From a bacterium (GTDB lineage Bacteria; Krumholzibacteriota; Krumholzibacteriia; JACNKJ01), in assembly GCA_024231955.1 (NCBI GenBank), contig JAAEPZ010000591.1:98453-162452 (forward strand): 64,000 nt of DNA. The letters run 5' to 3'. The first letter of the stretch is position 1. Each line of letters begins with the position of its first letter. The notes under the pieces are model-generated. The model made no database searches. It saw only the letters and a list, made by a program, of their open reading frames with translations, and was not told where the DNA came from. Positions 9,125 to 35,921 of this stretch are shown here, one piece after another. The position numbers were made by a program, and so were the translations under genes.

Positions 9125-9424
9125 ATGAGATACTGGCGAGTTCCACTAGACGCCGAAAAAGTCAAGATTCCCCGGGGCGAAATCCACCTGATTATCAATC
9201 GTTGTAAAGGCTGCGAGTTTTGCGTGGAGTTCTGTCCGCGCGATGTACTCGTCATGTCCAAGGATTACAATGTGAAGGGCTACCACTATCCCGAAGTGGC
9301 TGTCCCCGATCAATGCGTCAACTGCGATCTGTGCCAGGTGATCTGCCCCGACTTTGCAATCTTCTGTCTCCCTCAGGACGCAGAGGCCAAATCGGATGAG
9401 GAGGTGAAAGATGGAGAAGGCTGA
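9125..9424 (+). CDS. 2-oxoacid:ferredoxin oxidoreductase delta subunit (2x[4Fe-4S] ferredoxin)
   Basis: 99 aa. CKGCEFCVEFCP and CVNCDLCQVICP motifs. RBS GGAGAGGG upstream. First gene of a D-A-B-G operon. Confidence 0.85.
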   Translation: MRYWRVPLDAEKVKIPRGEIHLIINRCKGCEFCVEFCPRDVLVMSKDYNVKGYHYPEVAVPDQCVNCDLCQVICPDFAIFCLPQDAEAKSDEEVKDGEG

Positions 9425-10571
9425 TTCAAAGCGAGTTCTCACAGGCAGTCATTACCTTGACGGCGATCACGCCTGTACCGAGGGCGCGTTGGCGGCGGGA
9501 TGCAATTTCATCGCCGGCTATCCTATCACTCCGTCAACCGAGGTGGTTGAACGATACTCCCGCCGGATCCCTGCGATCGGCGGCACGTTCATTCAGATGG
9601 AGGATGAGATCGCGTCCATCACCGCAGTCCTGGGCGCCGTCTGGGGTGGTGCCAAGGCGATGACGGTGACCTCCGGCCCCGGGTTCAGTTTGATGATGGA
9701 GAACATCGGTCTGGCCGCGATGCTGGAGACCCCCTGCGTGATCGTCAACGTCATGCGCGGTGGTCCCTCCACGGGGTTGCCGACAATGGTCGGACAGGCG
9801 GATGTCATGCAGGCGCGCTGGGGATCCCATGGCGATTACGAGATCATCGCCCTTGCGCCGCAATCTCCGCAGGAGGCCTTCACGCTGATGATCGATGCCT
9901 TCAATCTGGCCGAGCGTTATCGACTGCCGGTGATGGTGATGCTCGACGAGTGCATCGGCCACATGACCGAGAAGGTCGTGATCCCCGAGGCGTGTGAAAT
10001 CGAGATTCGTCCGCGACGCATCTCCACCAAGGAGAAGGGTGAGTATTTGCCGTATGAGATCGGCGCCGACATGGTGCCCGACATGGCCCATGCCGGTGAG
10101 GGGCACCGGTACCACATCACCGGCCTGACGCACGATGAGCGGGGATATCCCGCCATGGACGCCGAGGTGCACGACAAGCTCGTACGCAGGTTGTGCGACA
10201 AGGTCCGTGAGCAGGCCGACGACATCATCATGCTCGATGAGGATGGTATGGATGGTGCGGAGATAGTGCTGATCTCCTACGGCATCACCTCCCGTGTGGC
10301 CCGCGCTTCGATTGAGGCCACCCGCGCGGCCGGGATCAAGGTCGGCAGCTTGCGTTTGCAGACCCTTTGGCCGTTCCCCGAAAAACGGATCGGCGAGTTG
10401 GCCGGCAAGGTGAAGGCGTTTGTCGTCCCCGAGGTCAATTACGGCCAGATCAGCCTTGAGGTCGAGCGGTGTGCCGCAGGTCGGGCGCAAACGCTCCTGG
10501 TTCCGCATATGGGTGGGGGCGTACACGATCCCGCCGTCATTACCCGGGCGATTGAGGAGGCTGCAAAATGA
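9411..10571 (+). CDS. 2-oxoacid:ferredoxin oxidoreductase alpha subunit (pyruvate/2-oxoglutarate family)
   Basis: 386 aa. GSHYLDGDHACTEGALAAGCNFIAGYPITPSTEV is the canonical POR/KOR alpha N-terminus. Overlaps the delta gene by 14 nt. Confidence 0.9.
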   Translation: MEKADSKRVLTGSHYLDGDHACTEGALAAGCNFIAGYPITPSTEVVERYSRRIPAIGGTFIQMEDEIASITAVLGAVWGGAKAMTVTSGPGFSLMMENIGLAAMLETPCVIVNVMRGGPSTGLPTMVGQADVMQARWGSHGDYEIIALAPQSPQEAFTLMIDAFNLAERYRLPVMVMLDECIGHMTEKVVIPEACEIEIRPRRISTKEKGEYLPYEIGADMVPDMAHAGEGHRYHITGLTHDERGYPAMDAEVHDKLVRRLCDKVREQADDIIMLDEDGMDGAEIVLISYGITSRVARASIEATRAAGIKVGSLRLQTLWPFPEKRIGELAGKVKAFVVPEVNYGQISLEVERCAAGRAQTLLVPHMGGGVHDPAVITRAIEEAAK

Positions 10572-11461
10572 GCGACGCCATGAAGCGAACCGATCAGCAT
10601 CCTCTGGACGATATTCTCCGCAGCGACCGCCTGCCGCATATCTGGTGCGCGACTTGCGGCATCGGCACCGTGGTCAAGTGTTTCGCCGAGGCGATCCAGC
10701 GAACCGAGATCCCGCTGGACGACGTTGCCGTCGTTTCGGGGATCGGTTGTACCGGTCGCGTGGCCGGCTACGTGAAATTGGATTCCTACCATACGACCCA
10801 TGGGCGGGCCATTCCCTTCGCCACGGGTTTGAAGCTGGCCAACCCCAGGCTCAAGGTCGTGGTGTTCAGCGGTGACGGCGATCTTTCCGCGATCGGTGGG
10901 AATCACCTGATCCATGCCGCCCGGCGCAATATGGACCTCACCGTCATCTGTGTGAACAACTTCATCTACGGCATGACGGGCGGGCAGGCGGCGCCGACGA
11001 CGCCGAACACCGCCAACACCTCGACGACCCCTTTCGGCGCGTTCGAACCGCCCTTCAATCTGCAGAAGCTGCTTGAAGCGTGCGGCGCCAGTTACCAGGC
11101 GCGCTGGACATCGCTGCATGTCCGGCGTCTGACCAACTCGATGACCGAAGCCCTGCTCAAACCGGGATTCAGTTTTGTCGAGGCGATCGCGCCCTGCTCC
11201 ACGCTCTACGCGCGACGCAACCGTCTGGGTAGCGGTTTCGACCTGATGAAGTTTTACCACGACAACAGCGAGATCCAGCATGGAGCCGATCCTCGTGAGG
11301 TGGATATCTCCTTCCAGGATTCAATCATCGTGGGCAAGTTCATTGATCGCGAGCGTCCGACCTGGCAGCAACTCAATGATGCACAGCACAACCGGTCCCT
11401 GGGCGAGAAGTACTTCCGCCACGACATTGTGGAGGCCGGTGGGGAGGTGAGCGATGCCTAG
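10568..11461 (+). CDS. 2-oxoacid:ferredoxin oxidoreductase beta subunit (TPP-binding)
   Basis: 297 aa. CxxC, GIGCTGR and GDGD TPP/Fe-S motifs (VVFSGDGD). ATGA overlap with the alpha gene. Confidence 0.9.
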   Translation: MSDAMKRTDQHPLDDILRSDRLPHIWCATCGIGTVVKCFAEAIQRTEIPLDDVAVVSGIGCTGRVAGYVKLDSYHTTHGRAIPFATGLKLANPRLKVVVFSGDGDLSAIGGNHLIHAARRNMDLTVICVNNFIYGMTGGQAAPTTPNTANTSTTPFGAFEPPFNLQKLLEACGASYQARWTSLHVRRLTNSMTEALLKPGFSFVEAIAPCSTLYARRNRLGSGFDLMKFYHDNSEIQHGADPREVDISFQDSIIVGKFIDRERPTWQQLNDAQHNRSLGEKYFRHDIVEAGGEVSDA

Positions 11462-11987
11462 AACCGAGATCCGGATCACCGGCTACGGCGGGCAGGGCGT
11501 TATCCTGACCGGCTACATCTTCGGCAGGGCGGCAGCGATCCATGCGGATCTGCACTCCACGATGACGCAGAGTTTCGGGCCGGAGGCGCGTGGCAGCGCC
11601 TGCAGCTCGGCTCTGGTCGTGGATGACGGCATAATCGCCTACCCCTACCTGAACGATACCGACGTACTGATCGCCCTCTCACGCGAGGGTTACGAGAAGT
11701 ACAAAGTGGAATTGAAGACGGGTGGGACGCTGATCTACGACAGTGACATGGTGCAGCCGCAGGATACGGGCGATGTACGGATGTACGGCGTCCCGGCGGC
11801 CCGCATCGCCGAGGAACTTGGCAATCGCATCGTGCAGAACATCGTTGTTGTCGGATTCACGACTGCCGTCACGGATCTGGTGGATGTCGAAGCGGTGAAA
11901 AAATCGGTCAAGGGTTCCGTGCCCAGCGCGCTGGTCGACATGAACCTGGAGGCCTTCAGAAAGGGTTATGAGTTCTATCAAAAGTAA
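11454..11987 (+). CDS. 2-oxoacid:ferredoxin oxidoreductase gamma subunit
   Basis: 177 aa. [20 protein letters not shown] is the POR/KOR gamma signature. 8-nt overlap with the beta gene. Confidence 0.9.
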
Positions 11988-14900
11988 AGGGATCTTGGTC
12001 ATCGGGGCCGGAATCACGGGAATACAGACCTCTCTTGATCTCGCGCACGCCGGGTTCCGGGTTCACCTGCTCGAACGTTCGCCCTCTATCGGCGGTCGGA
12101 TGAGTCAGTTGGACAAGGTATTCCCGACGGTCGACTGCTCTATATGAATCCTGGGTCCCTTGATGATGGATGCCGGTCGGCATCCCGGGATCGAATTGCA
12201 TACTCTCTCCGAGCTCACGGGGCTGCGCGGACGTGCCGGTGCCTTCAGAGCCACCGTCCGTAAGCATCCGCGTTATGTGGACCCGGAGCTGTGCGTTGCC
12301 TGCGGTCGTTGCACCGACGTGTGTCCGCAGGTGCGTCCGAATCCGTATGATATCGGACTGAAATCCGCGAAGGCCATCGACCGTCTGTTTCCTCAGGCCG
12401 TGCCCGCCGCCTATCACATCGATAAGGATGTCTGCCTCAACGACAACATTATGTACTGCGAGCGCTGTATCCGCGCCTGCGAGCCCGACGCGATCGATTT
12501 CGATCAACGCGAGGAGACGTTGGAGCTGGAGATCGGGTCGGTGATCGTGGCCACCGGTTTCGATGAACTCGATCCGCGCGAACTGCTCCCTTTTGGTTAC
12601 GGAAGTTCGCGCAATGTGCTGACCGGCCTGGAGTTCGAACGGCTGCTGTGCGCAACCGGACCGACCGGCGGGCACGTCGTGCGTCCCACCGATCTCAAGG
12701 TGCCGGAGCGTATCCTCTTCGTGCAGTGTGTGGGCTCTCGTGGTGAGGGGGGACGTTCCTACTGCTCCCGCTACTGTTGCATGAACTCCGTGAAGTCCGC
12801 GATGCTTGCCCACGAGCATGAACCGACTCTGAAGGGGAGCACGCTGCTCTTCACCGATATGCGCGCCGATGGGCGCGGCTACGATGCTTTCGTCGAGCGC
12901 TGCCTGGAGAGGGATCAGATCAGCACCATGCGGGGACGTCCGGCGAAGATCGAGGAGAACCCCGAGACGGGCGATCTGAGCGTCTGGGTCGAAGATTTCG
13001 AAGCCGGCAGGCCAACCCGCATCGAGGCGGGTATGGTCGTGCTCTCCTCTGCTGCCCTGCCCGCCGGTGGGACGCCCGAGCTGGGACGTATTCTGAGGAT
13101 CGAATTGGATGAAAGCGGTTTCGTCAAACGGAAGTGTCCGGACGAATCGCCGACCAAAACGACACGTCCCGGCATCTATGTGGCCGGCAGTGCCGGTTCA
13201 CCCGCAATAATCCCCGAGTGCGTGGCGCAGGGTGCCGCCGCCGCATCCGCCGCGAGTACACACGTCCTTGCCGAGCGCAACACGAAGGAGCAGGGTGAGC
13301 ATGTCGCTCCCATCGATTCCTCCGGTCCGCCGCGCATCGGCGTCTTTGTCTGCCACTGTGGAGCCAACATCGCAGGGGTGGTCAACGTTCAGGAGCTGCG
13401 CGAGGAGGCGGCGAAGCTGCCCGGCGTGGTCTATGCCGGGGATGAACATTTCGCCTGCGCCGAGATCTCCCAGAAGGTCATCGAAGAGGTGATCACCGAG
13501 CACAAGCTCAACCGTATCGTTGTCGCCGCCTGCACGCCGCGCACTCACGAACCGGTGTTCCGCGATGTCCTCAGTCGACGCGGTCTCAATCCCTTCCTGT
13601 TCGAGATGGTCAACATTCGCGATCAGTGCACCTGGGTGCATTCGGATGTGCCCGATGAGGCGCAGGCGCGCGCGCGTGATCAGATCCGTATGAGCGTGGC
13701 GCGCGCCGCGCGACTGGAGCCGCTGACTCCGATTCGGGTGGACGTCAATCGACGCGTCGTCGTGATTGGCGGCGGCATCTCCGGAATCCGCGTGGCGCTT
13801 GATCTGGCTGCGCAGGAGTTCGAGGTGACGCTGGTTGAGGTTGACGAGCAGATGGGGGGCGTGACGGCGAAGCTGGGTACGGCTGTCGGCGAACCCGGTC
13901 AAGCGCTGACCACGCTGAAGAGGCAACTGAAGCGCTCACCGGTCAGAGTGTTGCGGCAAACGGATATTGCCCGCGTTGATGGTTACGTCGGCAACTTCAT
14001 CCTAACACTCCACCCGGGCGAAGAGGAGTTGACCGCCGGTGCGATCGTGCTGGCGATCGGCGCCAAGCCGTACGATCCCACGGGACGGTTCGGTTTCGGA
14101 ACGAAGAGCAATGTCATTACTAATCTGGATCTCGAACGCCGCCTCAGGGATGAGAGTGATGTCCTCGGCGGAGGTGAGGGGGGTGTCCCGGCTACCGCGG
14201 TGATTATCCAGTGTGTCGGTTCCCGCTGCCGGGAGGAGGGGTGCAACCAGGGGTGCTCCCGCTACTGCTGCCCGTCGACGGTCAAACAGGCGCTCAAGCT
14301 GGCGGCGCTGGGTACGCGCGTTACGGTGCTCTATCGCGACATGCGCATGGTGGGGCCGGGTATGGAGGCCCTGTATCGCGAAGCCCGCGGAGCGGGTGTT
14401 CTGTTCGTGCGTGTTCCGGACGGTGGGCAAATGACGGTTGTCGGCGATACTCTGGCCGAGGCTGTCGTCGCCGATGACATGCTGCCCGACCGCGAGATTG
14501 AAGCGCCCGCCGAATTGGTGATCCTGGCCGTCGGGCTGGTTCCCGACAATGAGTTGATTTTGCGTATCAAGGAGCTCCTGAAGACTCCGGTTGGTCCCGA
14601 TGGCTTCCTGATGGAGCGTCATCCCGAACTGGGGCCGGTCGAAACTGTCGTGGACGGAGTATTCGTCTGCGGTACGGTCACCGGAGCCAAGTCGATTGCC
14701 GACTCCCTGGCCGAAGCCGGAGCTGCCGCGGGCAAGGTCAGCCGCCTGCTGTCGCGACAGGCGCTGACGCTGGAGCCGACCGTGGCCGAGGTTGATCGTC
14801 TGCTCTGCCGCGCGTGCGGCAAGTGTGTCGAGATCTGCGAGTATCAGGCCCCCTCCCTGGCTGATGACATGTTCGGTTTGCAGGCGGCGTCGATCAACAA

Positions 14901-15027
14901 GGCCTCCTGCAAGGGCTGCGGCACCTGCGTCTCCTGGTGTCCGACGGGAGCGATCAAGGCCTGCCACTTCACCGATGGTCAGATCGAGGCGATGATGGAA
15001 ACGATGCTGCAGTGGGAGAAGATGTGA
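11968..15027 (+). CDS. hdrA: Large HdrA-like flavoprotein (HdrL-type, two tandem HdrA-like halves) containing an in-frame UGA (selenocysteine) at 12145-12147
   Basis: ATG at 11968 in frame with track ORF 12160-15027. Translation [20 protein letters not shown]...[23 protein letters not shown]. The TGA sits where the second Cys of the conserved HdrA DCSxC motif belongs. Second half has the HdrA N-domain ([15 protein letters not shown]...CTPRTHEP) plus an FAD site ([10 protein letters not shown]) but no CxxU/CxxC motif. Ferredoxin CxxCxxCxxxCP motifs present. Confidence 0.8.
12168..12185 (+). promoter_or_regulatory. Putative bacterial SECIS hairpin 20 nt downstream of the UGA in hdrL
   Basis: GGAUGCC-GGUC-GGCAUCC: perfect 7-bp stem with a GGUC apical loop (G and U in the loop as in characterised bacterial SECIS). 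Identical element at the same spacing in the second hdrA. Confidence 0.5.
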
Positions 15028-15494
15028 ATAACAGCGATTTCGAACCGCGGATAGTGGTGTTTGCCTGCAACTGGTGTTCGTACGCCGGAGCCGATACGGC
15101 TGGCGTCAGCAGGTTGCAGCACTCGCCCAAATTCCGGGTCATCCGGACCATGTGTTCGGGGCGTGTCAATTCGGTGCATATCCTCAAGGCCTTCGAGATG
15201 GGGGCCGACGGAGTCCTGGTGTCCGGATGTCACATCGGCGATTGTCACTACATGTTCGGCAATCACTGGGCGATCAAGCAGTTCGATGTCACGCGCGATC
15301 TGCTCAACATGCTTGGCCTGGAGGAGGCGCGCACGCGGCTGGAATGGGTGTCTGCGGCGGAGGGTCCCAAGTGGGCCTCCCTGATCGATGAATTCGTGAC
15401 CACGATTCAGCAGCTCGGTCCCAGCCCGCTGCGGGGGGAATCCACCGAGGAGTCCTTCGGCGACCGTGAGATCGACATGGAGGTGAACGGGTAA
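15024..15494 (+). CDS. mvhD: MvhD/FlpD-family [2Fe-2S] protein (methyl-viologen-reducing hydrogenase delta-subunit-like)
   Basis: [19 protein letters not shown]...IRTMCSGRV...GADGVLVSGCHIGDCHY...LEWVSAAEG is the MvhD signature. Start is probably the GTG overlapping the hdrL stop (GTGA). The longer ATG 14937 start in the track would overlap hdrL by 90 nt. Confidence 0.7.
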   Translation: MNNSDFEPRIVVFACNWCSYAGADTAGVSRLQHSPKFRVIRTMCSGRVNSVHILKAFEMGADGVLVSGCHIGDCHYMFGNHWAIKQFDVTRDLLNMLGLEEARTRLEWVSAAEGPKWASLIDEFVTTIQQLGPSPLRGESTEESFGDREIDMEVNG

Positions 15495-16603
15495 TGGCGA
15501 ATACCGAATTGAAAGGGGCCATGCGCTGTCTGGACTGCGGTAAATGCACATCCGCCTGTCCCGTGGCGCGCTTCAATCTTGTCCTCTCTCCCCGGAGATT
15601 GATCCGGCAGCTCGGTTGCGGAGTGGATGCGGGTTGCGGCGACGCGCTCTGGTCCTGTCTGACCTGCGGCCGCTGTGATGCGGTTTGTCCGCAAGAGGTG
15701 CCGATCACCGCCGCCATGCCGCTGCTGCGCGCCGATGTGCGTGCGGAGGGGGGCAAGCCGCCCTTCACACGCTGCGGAGCGATGGAGAGCGTGGCGACGA
15801 TTCAGTCGCAGGGGCCCGTTCCCCAGAACCGGCTGGAGTGGCTCACCGACGACCTGCGCACCGACCCGGAGAGCAAAACGCTGCTCTTCATAGGCTGCAC
15901 CCCCTACTTCGACAAGTTCTTCGTCGAGCACGATGTCGATACCCTGGCGGCGGTGAAGGGGGCGATCCGGATTCTCAATGCAATGGGCATAGAGCCCGCC
16001 GTGCTGGCCGATGAGCGCTGTTGCGGACACGATGCACTCTGGTCCGGGGACGAAAAGACCTTCAGCGATCTGGCTCATCTGAATCTGGAGATGTTCGCCA
16101 AGGCCGCACCCGATCTGATCGTGACGGTCTGCCCGGAATGCTCACTGACCCTCGGGCGCACCTACCCGGAACGTTTTGAAGCGCCCGGCTGTCCGGTCAA
16201 ACACATCACCGAGGTGGTCTCGGAGCATTACGAGGAGCTGGAGTTCACCGCACGCGAGCTGACGGTGACTTTCCAGGATCCATGTCGATTGGGGCGTCAT
16301 CAGGATCTGTATGTCGAGCCGCGCGAGGGGCTCGAGATGATTCCCGACCTCGAACTGAGAGAGATGCCGCGGAATAGGGCGGCAGCCGTTTGTTGCGCGG
16401 GCTCATGGCTCACCTGTAATCAGGCGAGCAAGAAGATTCAATCCGATCGCCTCGCGGAGGCAGAGGCGACCGGGGCGGAACTGATGGTGACGGCCTGTCC
16501 CAAGTGCCTGATCCATTTCCGCTGCTCTCAATCCGGCGTCGGGGAGGAGCCCGGGATCGAGATCCGGGACTTCGCAGACCTGCTCGCCGAGTCACTGCAA
16601 TAG
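15494..16603 (+). CDS. HdrD-like Fe-S oxidoreductase (HdrC-type 2x[4Fe-4S] domain fused to HdrB-type CCG domains)
   Basis: 369 aa. N-terminal [12 protein letters not shown] and [12 protein letters not shown] motifs. C-terminal CCG motifs (ERCCGHD, CCAGSW). 1-nt TAATG overlap with mvhD. Confidence 0.7.
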
Positions 16604-16625
16604 AGGAGGAAAGGAGGTGAACCGT

Positions 16626-19055
16626 ATGCCGAAAGCTCTACCCCGTATAGGAGTCTTCGTTTGCGATTGCGGCTCGAACATAGCCGGAACCGTGGACACC
16701 CAGGCGGTAACCGATTACGCCACCACTCTGCCCGGAGTCGTCGCGGTAGTGAGGAACAAGTACACGTGCGCCGAACCTGGACAGCAGGAGATCAAGAAGG
16801 CGATCGTGGAGGAGAAGCTGGAGCGTGTCGTCGTGGCGTCCTGTACGCCGCGGATGCATGAGCCGACTTTCCGTGGATGTGTCTGGGATGTCGGTTTGAA
16901 CCCCTATCTCATGGAGATGGCGAATCTTCGTGAACACTGTTCCTGGGTGCATGGAGACGACAAGGAGGGCGCCACCGCCAAGGCCAAGGATCTGGTTGCC
17001 AGCGCAGTCGCGCGTGCAGCCAAACTCGAGGCTCAGGAGGAGGCTGTCTTCCCGGTCACCAAAGCGGCGCTGGTGATCGGTGGAGGCATTACCGGGATTC
17101 AGGCCGCCATGGATCTGGCGGACGCCGGTCATCAGGTCTATCTGGTCGAGAAGGAGGCGAGTATTGGCGGGATCATGGCCCAGCTTGACAAGACCTATCC
17201 CACCATGGACTGCTCGATATGAATTCTCGGACCAAAGATGATGGATGCCGGTCGGCATCCCCTGATCAAATTGATGAGTTACAGCGAGATTGAGGACGTC
17301 AATGGTTACGTCGGCAATTTCAAGGTTACGGTTCGCAAGAAGGCGCGCTACGTGGACGAAACCGTCTGCAACAGTTGCGGTGAGTGCGAGAAGGTGTGTC
17401 CCGCAATCCATCCGGACGAGTTCCAGATGGGGTTGGCGACACGGAAGGCTGTGCACCTGCCCTTCCCGCAGGCCGTGCCGTCGGCCTACCTGATCAACAT
17501 GGAGAATTGCCTGGGCACGAATCCCATCGCCTGCGGCAAGTGCGCCGAGGTCTGCGAGAAGAATGCCATCAACTATGATATGCAGGATGAGATCGTCGTC
17601 CTGGATATAGGTGCGATCGTGGTGGCGACGGGGATCGATGTCTACGATCCCACGCAGCAGGATGAATACGGCTATACGCGATTCCAGAACGTGATTACGA
17701 GTATGGAGTTCGAGCGGCTTATCTGTGCTGGAGGGCCGACGGTCGGCCATCTGGTGCGGCCGGGTGATCACACCACGCCGCTGCGGATCGGTTTCATCCA
17801 GTGTGTCGGTTCCCGTTCGCTGCGCGATGGGGCGGGTTTCTGCAGCAACATCTGCTGCATGAACACGGTCAAGGATACGCTGCTGATTCGCGATCATTAT
17901 CCCGACGCCGAGTGCTCGGTCTTCTATATCGACATCCGCGCGTTCGGTAAGGGATTCGAGGATCTTTACGACAAGAGTCGCGAGGCCGGCGTCAAGTACA
18001 TCCGCGGTATTCCGGGTGAGATTACGGAGGACCCCGCCACCGGCAATCTGCGCATGGTGGTGGAGAACACGACTACGCGGTCGATCGAGGAGCACGAGTT
18101 CGACATGATTGTGCTGTCGGTCGGTGTGCGGCCCCGAGCGGACGGCGGCGATATCCGTCGACATTTGACGCTGTCGCAAACCTCCGATGGTTTTCTGATG
18201 GAGGCCCATCCCAAGCTCAAGCCGGTGGACGCGCCGACGCGCGGCGTGTATATCGCGGGTTGCGCCGAAGCACCGAAGGACGTCAAGGAGAGCGTGACCC
18301 AGGCCAGCGCCGCTGCGGCGAGGGCGGGCGTATTGCTCAATGCGGGGAAGGTGACCGTGGAGGCGATCACCTGTACCATCGACAATGATCTCTGTCACGG
18401 TTGCGGAGCCTGCGAAAAGGTCTGCCCCTATGGAGCGATCACCGTGGATAAGGGGGCAAAAACGGCAGCGGTGGTTGAAGCCGCCTGTGCCGGATGCGGC
18501 ACCTGTGGTTCCGCTTGCCGATTCGATGCGATCACGATGCGGCATTTTACGGATGCGCAGATCGTGGCCCAGGTCGACGCCCTGCTGGCGGAGCGGCAGA
18601 GCGGGAAGGTTATCGTCTTCGCCTGCAACTGGTGCTCCTATGCAGGGGGCGATACCGCAGGCACGAGCCGCATGCTTTATCCCGCGAGTAATCGTTTGAT
18701 CCGTACGATGTGCAGCGGGCGAATCTCCGAGGAGTTCGTGCTGCGCGCGTTCCGCAAAGGGGCGCCGATAGTGCTGGTTTCCGGTTGCCACTTCGCGGAT
18801 TGCCACTACATCGACGCAAACCGTCAAACAGTCAAACGTGTTTATCGCTTGTGGAAGCAGTTGGAGAAGCTGGGGATTCGCACCGAACGGCTGCAGTTGG
18901 AATGGATCAGCGCGGCCGAGGGTCCCAAATTCCAGAAGACGATGCGCGAGATGGAGGAGTTGCGTGCCCAGGTGACCCAGGAGGAGATCGATCACACCGT
19001 GAAGGTGTTGACCGAGCAATTCGAGAAGCGTCGCCTGAAAAAAGTGAGGAGCTGA
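16626..19055 (+). CDS. hdrA: HdrA flavoprotein with C-terminal fused MvhD domain, containing in-frame UGA (selenocysteine) at 17220-17222
   Basis: Track ORFs 16617-17222 and 17238-19055 share a frame and are separated only by TGA. Translation ...[30 protein letters not shown]. Canonical HdrA N-domain ([22 protein letters not shown]), FAD site ([17 protein letters not shown]), ferredoxin motifs. C-terminal MvhD block ([18 protein letters not shown]...[11 protein letters not shown]). AAGGAGG RBS 8 nt before ATG 16626; GTG 16617 also possible. Confidence 0.8.
17243..17260 (+). promoter_or_regulatory. Putative bacterial SECIS hairpin 20 nt downstream of the UGA in hdrA-mvhD
   Basis: Same GGAUGCC-GGUC-GGCAUCC hairpin as at 12168-12185, at the same 20-nt distance from the UGA. 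Confidence 0.5.
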
Positions 19056-19059
19056 CGGC

Positions 19060-19224
19060 ATGGAAAAGATGTGGGTGTTCAAGTGTCAGCGCTGCGGTTG
19101 TGATTATCAGGAGGTCTACGACCCCAAGGCGGCGCTGCGGGAGAGATCCTGCCCGCAGTGTCGCTCCAACAGCGTGCGCCCGTTGCACGATGTCGATTCG
19201 ACGAAAAGACAGGCGAAGGGATAA
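19060..19224 (+). CDS. Small zinc-ribbon protein (54 aa, two CxxC pairs) between hdrA and hdrC; absent from the ORF track (<60 aa)
   Basis: ATG 5 nt after the hdrA stop. Translation MEKMWVFKCQRCGCDYQEVYDPKAALRERSCPQCRSNSVRPLHDVDSTKRQAKG. Stop TAA at 19222-19224, 6 nt before hdrC. Confidence 0.45.
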   Translation: MEKMWVFKCQRCGCDYQEVYDPKAALRERSCPQCRSNSVRPLHDVDSTKRQAKG

Positions 19225-19230
19225 GCGACG

Positions 19231-19731
19231 ATGAAGGAGAAAAAACGGGTGCGGATCAGTCATGATTTCCGAGAGCAGTTGGGGCTTGTGCTCGAGGGGG
19301 ATGGCGTCAATTACTGTTACCAGTGCGGTGCCTGCGTGGGGGACTGCCCCACCGCCCGCTTCAGTGAGGATTTCAACCCGCGGACCATCATGCAGTCCGT
19401 TCTCTATGGCCTGAAAGAGGAGATCGCCTCGGATACGCTGCCTGTCTGGATGTGCTCCAATTGCTTCACCTGTTTTGACCGCTGCCCGCAAGAGGTCAAG
19501 CCGATTGAGGTGATCATCGCCCTCAAGAATCTGATGGCGAGTGAGGGGATCGTTCCGAAAGGTGTGGAGGCGGCTGCTGCAGGTATCCTGAAAACGGGGC
19601 GCAGCGCGATAGTGTCCAATACCACCGTACGTCGTCGTGAGGAGTTGGGACTGCCGCCCCTGGAGGAGCTGGATGCCGGGGAATTACGTACCCTTCTGGA
19701 TGCGGACGCAAATGGGGAGGGGGAAAAATGA
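19231..19731 (+). CDS. hdrC: Heterodisulfide reductase subunit C (2x[4Fe-4S])
   Basis: 166 aa. CYQCGACVGDCP and CSNCFTCFDRCP motifs with the HdrC-type helical C-terminal part. Confidence 0.85.
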   Translation: MKEKKRVRISHDFREQLGLVLEGDGVNYCYQCGACVGDCPTARFSEDFNPRTIMQSVLYGLKEEIASDTLPVWMCSNCFTCFDRCPQEVKPIEVIIALKNLMASEGIVPKGVEAAAAGILKTGRSAIVSNTTVRRREELGLPPLEELDAGELRTLLDADANGEGEK

Positions 19732-20591
19732 AGCTGGCCTTCTTTCCCGGATGCATGATTCAGGTGAGATTCCCGCAGATGGAGGCGGCGGTGCGGAAAA
19801 CCGCGCCGGCGCTCGATGTCGAGTTGATAGACCTGCCTGGACTTGGCTGTTGTCCTGACCCCGTCTTCTTTAAATCGCTGCACAAACTTGATTGGTTGAC
19901 CCTTGCCGCCCGCAACCTGGCGATCGCCGAGCAGGCGGGACTCGATTTCGTCACGATCTGCAGCGGATGCACCGAGACGCTGGCGGAGGCCTCCCATCTG
20001 CTCAATGATGATGCTGATCTGCGCGGACAGGTAAACGAACGTCTGCACAAAATCGGCATGGAGTACAACGGTGGAGTGGCGACGCGTCATCTGATCACCG
20101 TGTTGCGGGACAATCTGGGGTTCGAACGGCTGACTGCTTCGGTGACTCGTCCTCTGACCGGTTTGCGTGTTGGAGTGCACTACGGTTGTCATCTACTAAA
20201 GCCGCGTAAGATCATGCAAGTCGATGATCCGGATCACCCCACGGTGTTCGAGGATATGCTGCGGGCCATCGGCGCCGAGCCTGTCGATCATGTGGAGCGG
20301 GTGATCTGCTGCGGCAAATCGTGCCGCGATTGCAACTTGCCTGAGGAGATGACATTGACGGTATTGAGATCGCTCAAGACGGCAGAGGTCGACATGATGG
20401 GGGTGATTTGCCCATCGTGTTTCGATTCCTTCGATATCGGGCAGATCAAGATCTCCCGCAAACACAAGCTGGGCTACACAATCCCGCCCGTCTACTACTT
20501 CCAGTTGCTTGCGTTGGCTCAAGGGCTGACGCCGGCAGAGGTCGGATTGGACAAGCATAAGATCAAGTCGGAGAGACTGCTGACTTTGTAG
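19728..20591 (+). CDS. hdrB: Heterodisulfide reductase subunit B (two CCG domains)
   Basis: 287 aa. N-terminus MKLAFFPGCMI...GLGCCPDP and CCGKSCRDCN are CCG-domain signatures. ATGA overlap with hdrC. Confidence 0.85.
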   Translation: MKLAFFPGCMIQVRFPQMEAAVRKTAPALDVELIDLPGLGCCPDPVFFKSLHKLDWLTLAARNLAIAEQAGLDFVTICSGCTETLAEASHLLNDDADLRGQVNERLHKIGMEYNGGVATRHLITVLRDNLGFERLTASVTRPLTGLRVGVHYGCHLLKPRKIMQVDDPDHPTVFEDMLRAIGAEPVDHVERVICCGKSCRDCNLPEEMTLTVLRSLKTAEVDMMGVICPSCFDSFDIGQIKISRKHKLGYTIPPVYYFQLLALAQGLTPAEVGLDKHKIKSERLLTL

Positions 20592-27484: not shown

Positions 27485-29038
27485 TCAGGATGTCTCGTAG
27501 ATGACGTCCAGGATCGTCCCGTCAACCCATTTCACAATACCCACGATCTTCTCGCCGACCCTGGGCTTTGCGGGGGGGCCTCCGACAATGCCCTCGATTT
27601 CCCGCTTCAGTTCGTCGATGGATCGCACCGGCAGACCCGCTGCAGTGGCGGACTCGATCAGATCCTGCCGCAGCGGATTGATGGCAATGCCCCGCTCGGT
27701 AACCACCACATCGATCAATTCGCCGGGGCCGCAGAGTGTGGTGACCTCATCGACGATCACCGGAATCCGGTTGCGGAACGCCGGGATCGGCAGAATCGTC
27801 ACGTTGGCGAATAGACAATTCTGCCAACCGCCGATGCCGTGCAGCATCTTGCCGTCACTGTGGGTGACCACGTTGGCGTTGAAATCGACATCGACCTCGG
27901 TGGCGCCGAGCACGACGAAATCCACCAGGGAGGCGAAGTTGCCCTTGCCGTGCCAGTTGTAGCTGGTGAAAGGGCTGGTGGCCAGATGGTTGGGGTTCTC
28001 CCGCATGGAGCGCACCCCCTCAAGGTCGAAGGTCTGACCGTCGAGGAGATAATCCATCATCCCCTCCTCGAGCATCTGGACCATGTACTTCGTCGAACCG
28101 CCCCGCATGAAGCGTGCGCGGATCTCAGCCTCCCGCATCATCTCCTTGAGGAAGATGGCCGTGGCCAGGGCGGTCCCGCCGGCGCCGGCCTGCAGCGAGA
28201 ACCCATCGCGGAAGTATGATGTCGACCGGATGAACTTCGCCGTCAGTTCGGCGATCAGCAGACGGTCGGGACTCTTGGTGATCCGCGTCGTGCCGCTGAC
28301 GATCTTGTCCGGGTCTCCGACCTGCTCCAGTTCGACGACGTAATCCACGTTGTTCCCCTGGATCTGCCAGGGGACGCAGGGGAAGGGCACGAGGTTGTCG
28401 GTAACCACAATCACCTTGTCCGCATAGAGCGAATCGACCAGGCCGAAATTGAGGCTGCCGCAGGCGCTGGGTCCGCGATCCCCCGTGGCGTTGCCGAAAG
28501 CGTCTGCGGTGGGGGCGGCCAGCACCGTGATGTCGATGTGCACCTCGCCGTCCTGCACGGCCTGCCAGCGACCGCCATGACTGCGCAGCACGGCCACGCC
28601 ATCCATGTCGCCGTGACTGGCGTATGCCCCGAGAGGACCGTTGAGGCTCCCCTCGATCCGTTTCAGGACGCCGTTGTCCATGTGTTCGATCATGGGCTTG
28701 TGACAGGGGAACGCGGCGCTGGGAAACCAGACCAGATCCTTCACCCCCAACTCGGCCGCGGCCTGGAAGACCGCATTCATCACCAGATCCCCGTTACGGA
28801 AGTGGTGATGATTGCTGATGGTCATGCCGCTCTTCAGACCGGCTTTGCGCAGCGCCTCCTTCAAAGTGGCGACCCGCTTGTCGCCGTCGGCCGGGAAGTC
28901 CCCGCACTGGGCGACAGAGGGCGCCGTCTTGCGCCCCTGCGGCTGGAACTGCCCGACACCCTTGTACGGTGTCTGGGGAACGGCATTGACCTCTGTGGGA
29001 ACCATCCGACCCGCGGCATTCTTCACCATCTTGCTCAT
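27485..29038 (-). CDS. citF: Citrate lyase alpha subunit (citrate CoA-transferase)
   Basis: 517 aa. Colinear with CitF family (GMTISNHHHFRNGDLVMN..., ...NPNHLATSPFTSYNWHGKG..., ...GIAINPLRQDL...). Confidence 0.85.
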   Translation of the reverse strand: MSKMVKNAAGRMVPTEVNAVPQTPYKGVGQFQPQGRKTAPSVAQCGDFPADGDKRVATLKEALRKAGLKSGMTISNHHHFRNGDLVMNAVFQAAAELGVKDLVWFPSAAFPCHKPMIEHMDNGVLKRIEGSLNGPLGAYASHGDMDGVAVLRSHGGRWQAVQDGEVHIDITVLAAPTADAFGNATGDRGPSACGSLNFGLVDSLYADKVIVVTDNLVPFPCVPWQIQGNNVDYVVELEQVGDPDKIVSGTTRITKSPDRLLIAELTAKFIRSTSYFRDGFSLQAGAGGTALATAIFLKEMMREAEIRARFMRGGSTKYMVQMLEEGMMDYLLDGQTFDLEGVRSMRENPNHLATSPFTSYNWHGKGNFASLVDFVVLGATEVDVDFNANVVTHSDGKMLHGIGGWQNCLFANVTILPIPAFRNRIPVIVDEVTTLCGPGELIDVVVTERGIAINPLRQDLIESATAAGLPVRSIDELKREIEGIVGGPPAKPRVGEKIVGIVKWVDGTILDVIYETS

Positions 29039-30324
29039 GAGGTCACCTCCTTGCCCTTACGCCAGGTTTCGTCAAGCAGTCCGGTGGCCAGAGCCAGCTT
29101 AACCGTGTGCTGTGCCCGTTTGACCACGGGTGCGTCGATCATCTTGCTCCCCAGGCTGACGACCCCCAGGCCGCGCGCCTCGGCATCCTCGAAGGCCTCC
29201 ACGATCCGGCAGGCCTTTTTGACCTCCGCCGTTTCGGGGGCGAAAGCCTGGTTGACCACCGCGATCTGACGGGGATGGATGCACCCCTTGCCGTCGAAGC
29301 CGAGTCTCTTGGCCTCAAGTACGCTTTGACGCAGCCCCTCCTGGTCGCCCACGTCGCTGAAAACGGTATCGATGGGCTGCAGCCTGGCGGCCCGGGCCGC
29401 ATTGATGCACTGTCCGCGCATCCAGCGGCTCTCCTCACCCTCAAGCGTCCGCTGCACGCCGATGTCGGCGGTATAGTCCTCCAGACCAATGGCCACGGCC
29501 ACGTTGTTCGCGGATGCGCGGCAGATATCCAGCGCCTGCAGTGCTCCCAGGGCGCTTTCGATGATCGGCATCAGCCACACCGGCTCGGTGCGTCCGCAGG
29601 CCGCGCTGACCTCGGCGATCTTGGCGTCGATCAGTTTCAACTCCTCGGGGGTTTCGATTTTGGGTGCCAGGACAAGTTGCACGCCGTGGGGGACGATCCA
29701 CTCGAGGTCATCGAGACCGCGTTGACCCTGATTGATCCTCACCATGAGTTCGGCCTTGCCGAAATCGATTGCACGGAGGGCGTTGCGCACCACGATCCGA
29801 GCCGAATCCTTCTGGGTGGCGGCCACGGCATCCTCCAGGTCGAGGATGACCGCATCGGGATTGTGCAGGCCCGCGTTGATGAAAAGTCGGGGGGTATTGC
29901 CGGGCAGGTACAGACGACTGCGCCGGAAGCGGTCCCGGGCCGATGGGGTGGGATTTGCCCGTTGCTCCGGCAGGATCTCGGCCCGCAACTCGCCCAGGGC
30001 GCGTCGCGCGGCGACCTCGAGCCGGGCATCGATGACGAACGGCAGGGCCCCCGTATCCTCCATCTCGACTCGCGCATGCTCGATGCCCAGAGTCGTCAGT
30101 CCCCTGAGCAGCTGTTCGCGGATGGAGTCACCGTACATGGACTCCACCTTCGAACTCACCTCCAGCTCAATGCCGCCACTATTTCTGATCTCTAGATCGA
30201 TCCAGCAGTCGGAGCGCACATTCTTGCCGCGCACACCGGCTTCGGCTCTGCCTGTACTCATGTAGGTTGTCTCCCGGCTAGGTGTTGATCGGATACCGTG
30301 AACCCATGATTTCACTATTACCAT
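29035..30324 (-). CDS. citE: Citrate lyase gamma (acyl-carrier, CitD) fused to beta (citryl-CoA lyase, CitE, HpcH/HpaI fold)
   Basis: N-terminal roughly 100 aa resemble CitD (AEAGVRGKNVRSD...EDTGALPFVIDARLEVAARRA). Remainder is CitE (YLPGNTPRLFINAG...ILDLEDAV...GLEDYTADIG...GFDGKGCIHPRQI). 4-nt overlap with citF. Start may be the internal ATG near 30261. Confidence 0.75.
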   Translation of the reverse strand: MVIVKSWVHGIRSTPSRETTYMSTGRAEAGVRGKNVRSDCWIDLEIRNSGGIELEVSSKVESMYGDSIREQLLRGLTTLGIEHARVEMEDTGALPFVIDARLEVAARRALGELRAEILPEQRANPTPSARDRFRRSRLYLPGNTPRLFINAGLHNPDAVILDLEDAVAATQKDSARIVVRNALRAIDFGKAELMVRINQGQRGLDDLEWIVPHGVQLVLAPKIETPEELKLIDAKIAEVSAACGRTEPVWLMPIIESALGALQALDICRASANNVAVAIGLEDYTADIGVQRTLEGEESRWMRGQCINAARAARLQPIDTVFSDVGDQEGLRQSVLEAKRLGFDGKGCIHPRQIAVVNQAFAPETAEVKKACRIVEAFEDAEARGLGVVSLGSKMIDAPVVKRAQHTVKLALATGLLDETWRKGKEVTS

Positions 30325-30398
30325 TTTGCGTCCGTCGAGGCAATGGACATCGACTCCCGACTCCGGAAACCTCGCCTCCGTACGATCCGCCGCTTCGC

Positions 30399-31316
30399 TC
30401 AGAGTGTGTCGCTGAAGAAAAGCAGAGTGACGCCACCCAGCGCAATCAGGGTGCCCAGCACGGCCCGGAGGCCGATCCGCTCACCGAAAACGATACGTCC
30501 GATCGGCAGCAGGAATACGGGCGGCAGCGCCATGAGGGTGCAGGCGACACCCACCTCTGTGTATTTCAACGCGACCAGCGAGAGGTAGACGCCAATCGCC
30601 GGGCCGGCCATTGTGCCCCCGGCGGTGAAGAGGATGCTGCGCGGACGGGTGCGGAAGGTGCGGATCGTGGATCCGATCCGCTTGCTGAACAGGGCTATGA
30701 GCCAGAGCGCCAACGCCCCCGCGCAGATACGGATCGTCAGACCCGAGAGGGCCGGGATATCGCCGAAGAGCCCCTTTTTGGCGGTTATCATCCCCAGCGC
30801 CTGCCCGACGGCGCCGCCGGAGGCGAAGAGCAGACCGCGCAGGTAGTGACGGGTGTGGGTGTCGGCGCCCGTCTGCCCGTTGCGGTCGGAGACGACCCAG
30901 ATCACGCCGCTAAGCGTAATGAATATCGCCAGGATCTTCATGCCGGCAAGCGTTTCGCCGAGCCAGAGCCGGGCGATCAGGACAGCTACGATTGGGGAGA
31001 GGCTGAAGACGAGCATGGTCAGACGGGTACCGATCATCACAAAGGCTTTGAAGAGGCAGGCATCGCCGAGCACGAAACCGATCAATCCCGACAGGCTGAG
31101 CCAGAACCAGCGCTCGCCGCCCGCGTCAAGGGGCAACGGTGAGCCGAAGATGATGCCGTGCAGCATGAGCATCAACAGCGCCGCGAGCAGGAGGCGGAGG
31201 CGATTGACGTTCTGCGAGCCCGCCAAACGACCGGCCAGAGTGAACAGCGTCGGTCCTATCGCCAGAAAGAGGGAGGAGGTCAGTCCGGCCAACTCGCCGA
31301 TGTAGCGCAGGGGCAT
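30399..31316 (-). CDS. EamA/DMT-family transporter
   Basis: Two EamA repeats and 10 predicted TM helices. I chose ATG 31316 (MPLRYIGELAGL...) over the longer track ORF, whose N-terminal extension is non-hydrophobic Arg/Cys-rich. Confidence 0.7.
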   Translation of the reverse strand: MPLRYIGELAGLTSSLFLAIGPTLFTLAGRLAGSQNVNRLRLLLAALLMLMLHGIIFGSPLPLDAGGERWFWLSLSGLIGFVLGDACLFKAFVMIGTRLTMLVFSLSPIVAVLIARLWLGETLAGMKILAIFITLSGVIWVVSDRNGQTGADTHTRHYLRGLLFASGGAVGQALGMITAKKGLFGDIPALSGLTIRICAGALALWLIALFSKRIGSTIRTFRTRPRSILFTAGGTMAGPAIGVYLSLVALKYTEVGVACTLMALPPVFLLPIGRIVFGERIGLRAVLGTLIALGGVTLLFFSDTL

Positions 31317-31615
31317 GTGGAATCTCCGAGCTTGGGTGTTCCGCATCAATCCGGGGAGTCGCCAAACGGGTATATGGTCGTCCGGATGAAGGTCTGGAGG
31401 AATGTATCGATAATCGGGGCAGGTGGATAGTCCCGACTGGTCATCTCTGTGGGAAATCCCCGCAAACCGATGAGGGGCGGGGGTTCTCGCGATCCGGCTT
31501 GGTCGGATACCTGACGGGTTTGCGGATCCGTGGATCCTGCACCTGACGAATCGGCAAACAGAAGAGCCGAGTTCCAAAGGGAACCCGGCTCATCGATTCG
31601 GACATCCGGTCGGAC

Positions 31616-33421
31616 TCAGGCTTTGAGCAGCCCGCCCCGCTGGTAGATACCCAATTGTACCTCACTGCAGGGGAGCCCCTCGACGACGCTGCCGTCGGCG
31701 CGGGTGATCTTGCCCGTCGTCAGATCCACCTCGATCGTCTCGCCATCGGCGATGTCCGTCGCCAACAGGTCGGCCGACAGGATCGGCAGCCCCGCATTGA
31801 CGGCATTGCGCTCGTAGATCGCCCCGTAACTCTTGGCGACGATCATGGGCATGCCCAGCGAGGTGAAGCAGTCCACCGCCTGCTGCCGGCTGCTGCCAGC
31901 GCCGAAGTTGCCGCCCGTAACCAGAATATCCCCGGGCTCGACGCGGGTGGAGAAATCCTCCCAGCCCTCGAGGTTGTCCATGGCGTACTGACCCATCTCG
32001 GCGATGTCCGTGATCGTCAGGTAGCGGTTGTGGAAGATCATATCGGTGTCGATGTTGTCCTGCCGGATCACCCACACGCGCCCCTTGATCGTGGTCGGTT
32101 TGCCGCTGCCGCCGCTCACCTCGCCCCGCTTGGCGGCCGGAGTGGGGGCCGTGCCCATCTCAAACCTCTTCGGCTCGGCGGGGATCGCGTCTTCGCTGCA
32201 GACGAACCCGCTCACCGCGCTGGCGGCCACGGTCGCCGGGCTGGCAAGGTAGACCTCGCCCTTGCCCTGTTTGCCCGTGAAGTTGCGGTTGCCCGAGGAG
32301 ATGGTGACCTCGCCGGGGCCGTTCATGCCGATCTGTCCGGCGGCGCAACCCGCGCAACCGGCGTTGCCGATCAGGGCACCGGCCCCTTTGTAGATCTCGA
32401 TCAGCCCCTCATCGAGTGCCTGCTGCCAGACGGCATCGGTGCTGGGGACGATCTTGAGAACAACGCCAGGCGCAACCTTGCGGCCGGTGAGCACGCGGGC
32501 TGCGGCGCGGAGGTCGGTGATGCGACCATTGGTGCAGCTGCCGATGAAAGCCGAGTCGATCTTCCGTTCGGACAGACCGGCAATCGTTGCCGCATTGTCC
32601 GGGTTGCCCGGAAGCGCGACCATGGGGGCGAGTTCGTCGAGGTTGATCTCAACGGTTTTGGCGTAGGTGGCGTCCGCATCGGGATACACCGGCTCGAAGT
32701 CGACTCCGCCGTTGGTGCGACAGTATTCCAGCACCTTGTCGTTGGGCGGGAACAGGGCGATGATCGCACCCATCTCGGTGGCCATGGAGGCGATGGTCAC
32801 ACGCTCATCGACACCCAGAGTGTCGACATACTCGCCGTGGAACTCGGCTGCGTGGCTCAGCAGTCCGGCGGCGCCCAATTCGCCGAGAATCTTGAGTACG
32901 ATATCCTTGGCCGAGGCCATTTCACCGGGCTCGCCGGTGAGCACGACCTTGATGGTCGGCGGCAGTTTGAACCAGGTGCGGCCGAAGGCCCAGACGTGGG
33001 CCATGTCCACATCGCCCAGCCCCTGGCCGAAGGCGCCCACGGCACCGACGATGTTGGCGTGGCTGTCGGTGGAGACCATCGTGCAGCCGGGCACCACGAT
33101 CCCCGCTTCGAGCGTGGCGTGAGTGCCGATGCCGCGATCGATATCGTAGATCTCGATCCCCTCCTTGCGGGCATAGAGGCGGCAACGCTGCTGGTTCGCC
33201 GCGTATTTCTGATCACTGCCCGTAGGGTTGCAGTCGAAGGTGAAGAAGGTGCGGCTCGGGTCATCGAGACCGAGGCCGTTGTCCTCCATGTTCTTGACGA
33301 CATTGGCGCCGCCGAAATCGCGGGCGACGCGGACATCCACGCTCAGGTCAACAATGTCTCCGGGTTTGGCCTGGCCGCCGGAGTGTGCGCTGAGGATCTT
33401 TTCGATCAGAGTCTGGCCCAT
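31616..33421 (-). CDS. Aconitase-family hydratase, fused LeuC-like large and LeuD-like small domains (3-isopropylmalate/homoaconitate/aconitate hydratase type)
   Basis: 601 aa. Fe-S ligand region GSCTNGRITD...GNAGCAGCAAG. Swivel/LeuD-like C-terminal domain (VTGGNFGAGSSRQQA). Substrate cannot be assigned from sequence. Confidence 0.8.
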   Translation of the reverse strand: MGQTLIEKILSAHSGGQAKPGDIVDLSVDVRVARDFGGANVVKNMEDNGLGLDDPSRTFFTFDCNPTGSDQKYAANQQRCRLYARKEGIEIYDIDRGIGTHATLEAGIVVPGCTMVSTDSHANIVGAVGAFGQGLGDVDMAHVWAFGRTWFKLPPTIKVVLTGEPGEMASAKDIVLKILGELGAAGLLSHAAEFHGEYVDTLGVDERVTIASMATEMGAIIALFPPNDKVLEYCRTNGGVDFEPVYPDADATYAKTVEINLDELAPMVALPGNPDNAATIAGLSERKIDSAFIGSCTNGRITDLRAAARVLTGRKVAPGVVLKIVPSTDAVWQQALDEGLIEIYKGAGALIGNAGCAGCAAGQIGMNGPGEVTISSGNRNFTGKQGKGEVYLASPATVAASAVSGFVCSEDAIPAEPKRFEMGTAPTPAAKRGEVSGGSGKPTTIKGRVWVIRQDNIDTDMIFHNRYLTITDIAEMGQYAMDNLEGWEDFSTRVEPGDILVTGGNFGAGSSRQQAVDCFTSLGMPMIVAKSYGAIYERNAVNAGLPILSADLLATDIADGETIEVDLTTGKITRADGSVVEGLPCSEVQLGIYQRGGLLKA

Positions 33422-33534
33422 GTCTTCTCCTGGGATCTCCCCATCTGAAGTTCGTGGTTGGCGATCCGCCGAAGGGCGGATCTTATGGGGCTACAATGAA
33501 AGAGATTTCCCGATGGGGGCAAGAGAAAACGGAG

Positions 33535-34113: not shown

Positions 34114-34114
34114 G

Positions 34115-34567: not shown

Positions 34568-34580
34568 ATCAATCTCCTGT

Positions 34581-34769
34581 TCAGGCTTCCTGTTTCAGCT
34601 CGACGCCGCACATTCCGCAGTACTTGGCATTCAGGTATTCGGTCGAGATACGTTCGCCGCACTGGGGGCAGCGGTAGCGTCTGCGGGACATGAAGGCGAA
34701 GAAGAAGAGCAGGATCGCCAGTCCCAATGTGAATAAACCGCCTACGATATAGAGAACCAACACCCACAT
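34581..34769 (-). CDS. Small membrane protein with C-terminal zinc-ribbon (TM + CPxCG...CGxCG)
   Basis: 62 aa. MWVLVLYIVGGLFTLGLAILLFFFAF then CPQCGERIS...YCGMCG. Confidence 0.4.
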   Translation of the reverse strand: MWVLVLYIVGGLFTLGLAILLFFFAFMSRRRYRCPQCGERISTEYLNAKYCGMCGVELKQEA

Positions 34770-35766: not shown

Positions 35767-35921
35767 GGGACGCCTGACGGCAGGATGGGGCTTGATTTCC
35801 CGAGGGATCTCTGAGAATATGCCCAGTTGATCGATCTTCCGTCCGGAGTCCGTCGGACTCCGTGCGCATCTGTTGCCATCCGGTCAATTCAGAAACAATC
35901 AGGTAGAGACACGGGGCCTCG

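Follow-up and report, generated by a model that had tools for sequence, protein, structure and literature searches.

An in-frame UGA and its downstream hairpin in an hdrA-mvhD fusion gene of a Krumholzibacteriota bacterium: a probable selenocysteine codon and bacterial SECIS

Does the in-frame TGA at positions 17220-17222 of a Krumholzibacteriota contig terminate translation, or is it read as selenocysteine (Sec) with the help of an RNA hairpin that begins 20 nt downstream? The question is raised by a 64,000-nt stretch of DNA (NCBI GenBank assembly GCA_024231955.1, contig JAAEPZ010000591.1, forward-strand positions 98,453 to 162,452), here called the window and numbered from its first letter, in which two plus-strand open reading frames (ORFs), 16617-17222 and 17238-19055, together encode an HdrA-MvhD fusion protein. 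Very probably, judging from alignments, folding and comparison with homologous genes, the UGA and the hairpin (17243-17260) form a functional pair of Sec codon and bacterial Sec insertion sequence (SECIS).

The UGA codon, its reading frame and the hairpin

An earlier note on this DNA had described the two ORFs as contiguous in frame across the TGA, and continuous translation agrees: merged, they form one 812-codon gene (16617-19055, plus strand) with a single in-frame UGA. An AGGAGG-like ribosome-binding site lies upstream of GTG 16617, and ATG 16626 is an alternative start. The name hdrA-mvhD fusion, also from that note, is borne out by a PDB search, in which residues 9-657 of the product match HdrA (5odc_A, of the HdrABC-MvhAGD complex; E = 3e-233) and residues 663-779 match MvhD (5odc_D; E = 2e-40). 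Pfam places FlpD/MvhD at residues 665-781 and further identifies Fer4 and FAD/NAD-binding (Rossmann-type) domains. The layout comprises the HdrA N-terminal iron-sulfur (Fe-S) domain, an FAD domain that resembles thioredoxin reductase, ferredoxin domains both inserted and at the C-terminus, and the MvhD domain; by both architecture and homology, the product is a member of the HdrA family.

The UGA stands at residue 202 of the fusion protein. The aligned position is Cys in 120/120 homologs, these being the best full-length matches in the protein collection (65-69% identical to the hdrA-mvhD product), and lies within the motif DCSIC[VI]LGPKMMD[VA]GRHP; few of the 120 carry source names, and those named are Chloroflexota or Dehalococcoidia. 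Residue 202 also aligns with Cys197 of the solved archaeal HdrA 5ODC, a residue of the thioredoxin-reductase domain through which one HdrA protomer ligates the N-terminal [4Fe-4S] cluster of the other (Chadwick et al., PMC9012536). At the equivalent site, the HdrA of PDB entries 9sfi_A / 9t1s has a non-standard residue X (tddcamXilapkm), which is consistent with the Sec of an archaeal Sec-HdrA; a solved HdrA structure with Sec at this site probably exists. Moreover, among the matches listed, 112 unique homologous genes have TGA at this very codon. Aligned in this way with Cys197, with the X of 9sfi_A and with the Cys of the 120 homologs, the putative Sec202 is at the known Sec position of HdrA. 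Translation of the UGA as Trp or Gly under an alternative genetic code was considered and rejected: TGA is the stop codon of 12 of the 26 long ORFs in the window and there is therefore no genome-wide UGA reassignment, and the site aligns with Cys.

The hairpin (plus strand) is formed by GGAUGCC (17243-17249) and GGCAUCC (17254-17260), which enclose the apical loop GGUC (17250-17253). It starts exactly 20 nt after the TGA and within the coding frame, in agreement with the earlier note, and is found in every minimum free energy fold; the 18-nt hairpin alone has a free energy of -11.5 kcal/mol, and the 56 nt from the UGA have -14.2 kcal/mol. The bacterial SECIS (bSECIS) consensus of Zhang and Gladyshev, as given in PMC13188914, allows an apical loop of 3-9 nt (4 nt here), an upper stem of 4-16 bp (7 bp here) and a distance of 16-37 nt from the UGA to the apical loop (27 nt here, 17223-17249). 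It further specifies a G in one of the first two loop positions, usually then G or U (G[G|U]; GGU here), and a free energy of -7.5 kcal/mol or lower, which the 18-nt hairpin reaches by itself. The hairpin also lies in the coding region directly 3' of the in-frame UGA, so that the element at 17243-17260 agrees with the published consensus on every count. It resembles the consensus as a coding-region stem-loop with a GGU-starting loop, and differs from it in that RNAalifold finds no conserved lower stem. An extended stem (GGUCCC with GGGAUC), which is possible in hdrA-mvhD, was rejected, as it is kept neither in the second hdrA gene of the window nor in an alignment of 116 Sec-type genes. With up to two mismatches allowed, the chance expectation for the hairpin in the window is 0.03 by dinucleotide shuffling, and it is found at two loci. 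As a near-palindrome, it scores at both of them on the minus strand as well.

Were the TGA a true stop, HdrA would be split into two polypeptides or be a pseudogene, and the hairpin would serve translational coupling or re-initiation at ATG 17238, or else mRNA stability. This ATG lies 15 nt past the TGA, for which reason a gene caller sees two ORFs, and Sec machinery is not visible in the window. However, the TGA falls exactly on the conserved cluster-ligand cysteine and not between domains, ATG 17238 has no Shine-Dalgarno-like sequence upstream, and the TGA recurs at the same codon, with intact frames, in the 112 diverse genes. The agreement of the hairpin with the bSECIS consensus and the standing of HdrA as an established selenoprotein family (PMC1794560) likewise speak against termination, which we regard as very improbable.

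Synonymous sites and covariation in UGA- and Cys-type genes

The hairpin also encodes part of a conserved peptide, MDAGRHP, and could in principle be a by-product of that peptide and of local codon bias, with no function at the RNA level, whether or not the UGA is recoded. The peptide is strongly conserved in Sec and Cys homologs alike, and the loop G-G and most of the stem bases are set by the amino acids. The earlier note had proposed a comparison of UGA-containing genes with Cys-containing HdrA genes that encode the same peptide, and had named an identical hairpin at equal frequency in the latter as the mark of a coding by-product. That comparison was made here. One genome per GTDB species was scanned for DNA encoding M-M-D-[A/V]-G-R-H-P, which gave at least 119 loci, and a scan of JGI metagenomes for the MMD[A/V]GRHP peptide downstream of a Cys codon yielded 94 loci; removal of duplicates left the 112 unique UGA-type genes and 82 unique Cys-type genes. 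According to record titles, the UGA-type genes come from more than ten phyla, including Chloroflexota, Desulfobacterota, KSB1, Calditrichota, Zixibacteria, Krumholzibacteriota, Gemmatimonadota, Acidobacteriota, Planctomycetota, Marinisomatota, Bacteroidota, and others. The nearest fetched loci to the window, a Krumholzibacteriota metagenome-assembled genome (MAG) among them, have ~72% nucleotide identity.

All seven stem pairs are present in 111/112 UGA-type genes vs. 5/82 Cys-type genes. Six pairs are formed in the one other UGA-type gene and in 14/82 Cys-type genes, and three to five pairs in 63/82 Cys-type genes (0/112 of the UGA type). The codons follow the same division: Asp is GAT in 112/112 UGA-type genes (Cys-type: GAT 43, GAC 39), His is CAT in 112/112 (Cys-type: CAT 52, CAC 30), and Gly is GGT in 110/112 as against 12/82. 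The identical 18-mer occurs in 55/112 UGA-type genes and in 0/82 Cys-type genes, clearly not the equal frequency expected of a coding by-product. The loop is GGUC in 106 UGA-type genes, GGUA in four and GGCA in two. Its third position, which is the wobble base of the Gly codon, is U in 98% of Sec genes vs. 15% of Cys genes; in the E. coli element, too, the G and U of the loop (G23, U24) are important (PMC8659212).

Only one stem pair varies, between the middle base of the Ala/Val codon and the wobble base of the Arg codon. The codons are combined as GCC/CGG in 53 UGA-type genes, GUC/CGA in 39, GUC/CGG in ten (giving a G-U pair) and GCC/CGA in one, the single broken stem; six more use AGG for Arg, four with GUC and two with GCC. 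This covariation between Ala/Val and Arg is highly significant (counts 55/1/14/39, Fisher p = 1.7e-16). In the 116-sequence Sec-type alignment, the same pair (35-42) is CG 60, UA 41, UG 14 and CA 1 times. Across that alignment, paired cells make up 99.9% of the total, 41 cells carry a change on both sides, 0/500 shuffles match the observed score, registers slid by 1-3 columns are only 19-56% paired, and RNAalifold returns exactly these seven pairs and nothing else.

On the side of the by-product explanation, the same codons do form the 7-bp stem in 5/82 Cys genes. Against it, Cys genes that encode the same peptide have scattered codons, free synonymous sites and a mostly broken stem, whereas these sites are frozen in the UGA genes; the five-codon set GAT-GCC-GGT-CGG-CAT has a probability of 0.0066 per gene under the codon usage of the window; and Ala/Val covaries with the Arg wobble base. 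For practical purposes, the Sec-vs.-Cys and covariation data refute this explanation, which we find scarcely credible. They also uphold the argument of the earlier note that the structure is selected for. Its reservation, that the DAGRHP codons are also constrained by the protein, holds insofar as the peptide is conserved, but such constraint is insufficient, given that the same synonymous sites are free in Cys genes.

An internal control leads in the same direction. Within UGA-type genes, the D, A/V, G, and H positions of the hairpin have a codon entropy of 0-0.13 bit and its P position has 0.70 bit, whereas nearby invariant L, G, and P codons have 1.2-1.9 bits, equal to the Cys set. The Sec set is also the more diverged at the protein level (median distance 0.46, vs. 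0.14 in the Cys set). The association with UGA is specific: of the 118 consensus hairpins in 1.55 Mb of fetched loci, 115 have a TGA exactly 20 nt upstream.

A second copy of the pair is present within the window, in a paralogous tandem hdrA-hdrA fusion gene of 1019 codons (11968-15027, plus strand, start ATG 11968). Its one in-frame UGA (12145-12147), at residue 60 and within the same motif as in hdrA-mvhD, is the candidate Sec codon, and an identical hairpin by sequence and folding (12168-12185) lies 20 nt past it. The two paralogs share the 25-nt stretch GATGATGGATGCCGGTCGGCATCCC, which takes in all six synonymous sites. At the adjacent conserved codons (D-C-S-I-U-I-L-G-P), 5/8 synonymous sites differ, and in a pairwise alignment of a 201-nt region about half of the columns are identical; the genes have thus diverged outside an exactly kept hairpin, as the earlier note stated. 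That note had also spoken of a second independent pair. The second copy is real and identical, but it is not independent: the two SECIS copies of the window are paralogs that belong to a single HdrA SECIS type, widespread and conserved, and did not evolve separately.

Shared ancestry of a more recent kind, by horizontal transfer or by gene conversion between the paralogs, might produce such identity with no selection on RNA structure. It would accommodate the 25 identical nucleotides of the window copies, and horizontal movement of HdrA operons is known (PMC1794560). Flanking synonymous sites, however, show saturation when the paralogs are compared with each other and likewise over the 112 genes (about 1-2 bits), protein distances in the Sec set are large, and identical tracts of greater length are not seen around the hairpin in other genomes. 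A 25-nt conversion tract that recurs over more than ten phyla is itself implausible, and we give recent ancestry hardly any credence as an alternative to selection on the hairpin.

Three side observations concern these genes. The codon after the UGA (alignment A2 columns 10-12, equal to window 17223-17225 and 12148-12150) is Ile (AUH) in 99% of Sec-type genes vs. Val (GUN) in 99% of Cys-type genes; a Sec UGA is therefore almost always followed by A, which could be a context effect on termination vs. Sec insertion, or clade history. In an Anaerolineales MAG (L078:1009-1098), hairpin and TGA are both present but out of frame with each other owing to an intervening 1-nt indel, which reflects either an assembly error or a pseudogene. 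In the tandem HdrA-HdrA protein, module 1 (residues 1 to ~440) is without the N-terminal Fe-S domain and has the putative Sec at the Cys197-equivalent site, and module 2 opens with the N-terminal domain and has neither Cys nor Sec at that site. This complementary loss fits the "heterodimer in one chain" model of PMC9012536, although the module order is opposite to that of the fused HdrA described there.

Proposed decoding and relation to known SECIS elements

SelB-dependent Sec insertion is the standard, established bacterial pathway. By analogy with it, the C-terminal winged-helix domain of SelB, the Sec-specific elongation factor, would bind the apical GGU loop while the ribosome is stalled at, or approaching, the UGA. 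SelB, competing with release factor 2, would bring Sec-tRNA(Sec) to the A site, after which the ribosome would go on and melt the hairpin, which also codes for D-A-G-R-H-P. The predicted result is a full-length HdrA-MvhD flavo-iron-sulfur protein in which, from the alignment to 5ODC and from PMC9012536, Sec202 would take the place of Cys197 and ligate the partner HdrA protomer at its N-terminal [4Fe-4S] cluster. The tandem hdrA-hdrA gene (UGA 12145, hairpin 12168) would be served by the same SECIS type. SelB binding, insertion of Sec at the UGA and Fe-S ligation by selenium are all inferred here from known systems.

The minimal SECIS of E. coli fdhF is a 17-nt stem-loop that lies 11 nt past the UGA and requires a bulged U17 (PMC8659212). 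Like the E. coli fdhF/fdnG elements, the hairpin of the window is an apical stem with G and U in its loop and a proposed tether for SelB near the UGA. The fdhF loop is GGUC too. The element at 17243-17260 would work like the fdhF SECIS but is not of its subtype, for it does not have the features that define the fdhF type. Archaeal SECIS elements are located in the 3' untranslated region and have a GAA_A bulge (PMC13188914), whereas the window element is in the coding region and of the bacterial type; archaeal Sec-HdrA (Methanococcales) has its Sec at the same residue, the equivalent of Cys197.

HdrA, including hdrA-hdrA fusions, has been documented as a bacterial selenoprotein family since 2006 (PMC1794560). 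Multiple Sec-HdrA genes, in operons with FrhD/MvhD and GlpC, occur in Deltaproteobacteria and Clostridia, and hosts include Syntrophobacter, Syntrophus, Desulfotalea, Moorella, Carboxydothermus, and others (PMC1794560). The window shares with those loci the protein family, the operon partners (MvhD/FrhD and GlpC/HdrD-like) and hdrA-hdrA fusion. It differs from several Deltaproteobacteria, which have Sec forms of MvhD/GlpC-like proteins, in that its own are Cys forms, and from the Deltaproteobacteria/Clostridia Sec-HdrA loci in having no adjacent hydrogenase genes and, instead, an adjacent 2-oxoacid:ferredoxin oxidoreductase.

Several observations weigh against the pairing of a functional Sec codon with a SECIS. 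Compared with the fdhF SECIS, the hairpin has no bulged U, is a perfect 7-bp helix, and has its stem 20 nt rather than 11 nt past the UGA. Its single-sequence folding energy is no better than that of shuffles (z -0.5 to +0.1); z-scores are uninformative in this GC-rich sequence (59.5% GC). No Rfam family reaches its gathering score in the whole window, and a permissive local scan gave chance snoRNA matches (E > 5). ARAGORN found no tRNA in the 64-kb window, nor was selA, selB, selC or selD found there among the 20 long ORFs scanned. The Cys controls form one rather tight clade, with ~3 Sec/Cys transitions inferred from a neighbor-joining tree, so that the Sec-vs.-Cys contrast represents few independent events; the internal entropy control, which does not depend on the Cys clade, therefore weighs more. 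Finally, one Cys-type HdrA-like gene (L158; metagenome contig Ga0326726_10020759, minus strand, around locus position 2500) has a perfect 7-bp stem, GGATGCC-GGCC-GGCATCC, in which the loop U is replaced by C. This gene has an inserted GltD/NADPH-oxidoreductase-like region and adjoins kor genes 68% identical to those of the window; its stem may be a fossil SECIS left after Sec-to-Cys conversion, or may be due to chance.

The support for selection on the hairpin is thus comparative and not thermodynamic. Sequence comparison argues that selection maintains the hairpin where the gene has a UGA but does not do so in the Cys homologs, which are a narrow clade.

Gene neighborhood and wider occurrence

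Genes for a 2-oxoacid:ferredoxin oxidoreductase, assigned by Pfam (POR_N/PFOR_II, TPP_enzyme_C and POR across the set), lie directly upstream of the tandem hdrA gene and overlap its start (9411-11987): alpha (9411-10571), beta (10568-11461) and gamma (11454-11987). The tandem hdrA gene is followed by a stand-alone mvhD (15024-15494; Pfam FlpD, E = 9e-49), which is a Cys form by translation and probably starts at GTG 15024, overlapping the stop codon of the tandem gene. Next is an HdrD/GlpC-like Fe-S oxidoreductase with Fer4 and two CCG domains (15494-16603), also a Cys form with no in-frame UGA. Downstream of hdrA-mvhD, Pfam identifies an hdrC-like gene with a 4Fe-4S dicluster domain (19231-19731) and an hdrB-like gene with CCG domains (19728-20591); all of these genes are on the plus strand. 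In 9411-20591, the oxidoreductase is thus coupled by overlapping stop/start codons to two Hdr-type modules, the first comprising hdrA-hdrA, mvhD, and hdrD-like genes and the second hdrA-mvhD, hdrC, and hdrB. There is no hydrogenase or formate dehydrogenase near this region, and its composition suggests a ferredoxin-linked, flavin-based electron-bifurcating or -confurcating complex that uses a thiol/disulfide or other acceptor.

Neither mvhD nor other genes added to the selenoproteins: at 153 MvhD sites in 213 related loci, the codon is always TGC or TGT and no Sec-type MvhD was found, and a scan of the window for ORFs bridged by in-frame TGA gave, besides the two hdrA sites, noisy GC-rich artefacts.

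For annotation, ORFs 16617-17222 and 17238-19055 should be merged, as should 11968-12147 and 12160-15027, each pair into one selenoprotein gene. The top protein-search matches to the hdrA-mvhD product are Cys forms only; gene callers split Sec-hdrA genes, and public protein sets therefore under-represent Sec-HdrA. The findings imply that this apparently uncultured anaerobe needs selenium for its flavin-based electron-bifurcating Hdr complexes, in which selenium probably ligates a [4Fe-4S] cluster.

Sec-HdrA with a coding-region SECIS is already known, and hdrA-mvhD is a further example of it; the current understanding of Sec decoding is unchanged by it. Less well documented may be the conservation of the 18-nt SECIS across phyla, the Ala/Val-Arg constraint on the protein, and the occurrence of loci with two UGA codons (UxxU). 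Among the matches listed, the 18-nt HdrA SECIS exists in essentially two sequence variants over more than ten bacterial phyla, and one encoded residue is limited to Ala-GCC or Val-GUC, each tied to a matching Arg codon. With 112 Sec vs. 82 Cys genes that share a peptide, and with a compensatory codon change between Ala/Val and Arg, this is a clean demonstration of a coding-region hairpin selected as RNA. A broader proposal, that the HdrA SECIS is a rigid, "universal" SelB-binding 18-nt hairpin that spans phyla, constrains the protein and sometimes serves two UGA codons, is one we hold tentatively and judge rather unlikely. If it were true and undescribed, it would offer a minimal bSECIS that is natural and portable, and an instance in which the RNA structure dictates the choice of amino acid.

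The UxxU loci are found on a Gemmatimonadota chromosome (CP070758.1; L018:374-457) and in a Stahlbacteria MAG (L076:506-589). Both have two in-frame TGA codons three codons apart (D-TGA-A-I-TGA) with a single hairpin downstream, and Sec appears to replace both cysteines of the DCSxC motif. The two UGA codons are 36 and 27 nt from the loop; 36 nt is still inside the bSECIS range of 16-37 nt.

Elsewhere in the window, two regions (27485-39251 and 50560-56172) carry genes of organic-acid metabolism. They encode citrate lyase alpha and beta(+gamma), an aconitase/isopropylmalate-dehydratase with fused large and small subunit, IcmF (a fused isobutyryl-CoA mutase/GTPase), a malic enzyme-phosphotransacetylase fusion, and a succinate dehydrogenase/fumarate reductase flavoprotein. 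A subtilase with a type IX secretion system (T9SS) sorting domain, a hint of an FCB-group host, is encoded at 60705-63977.

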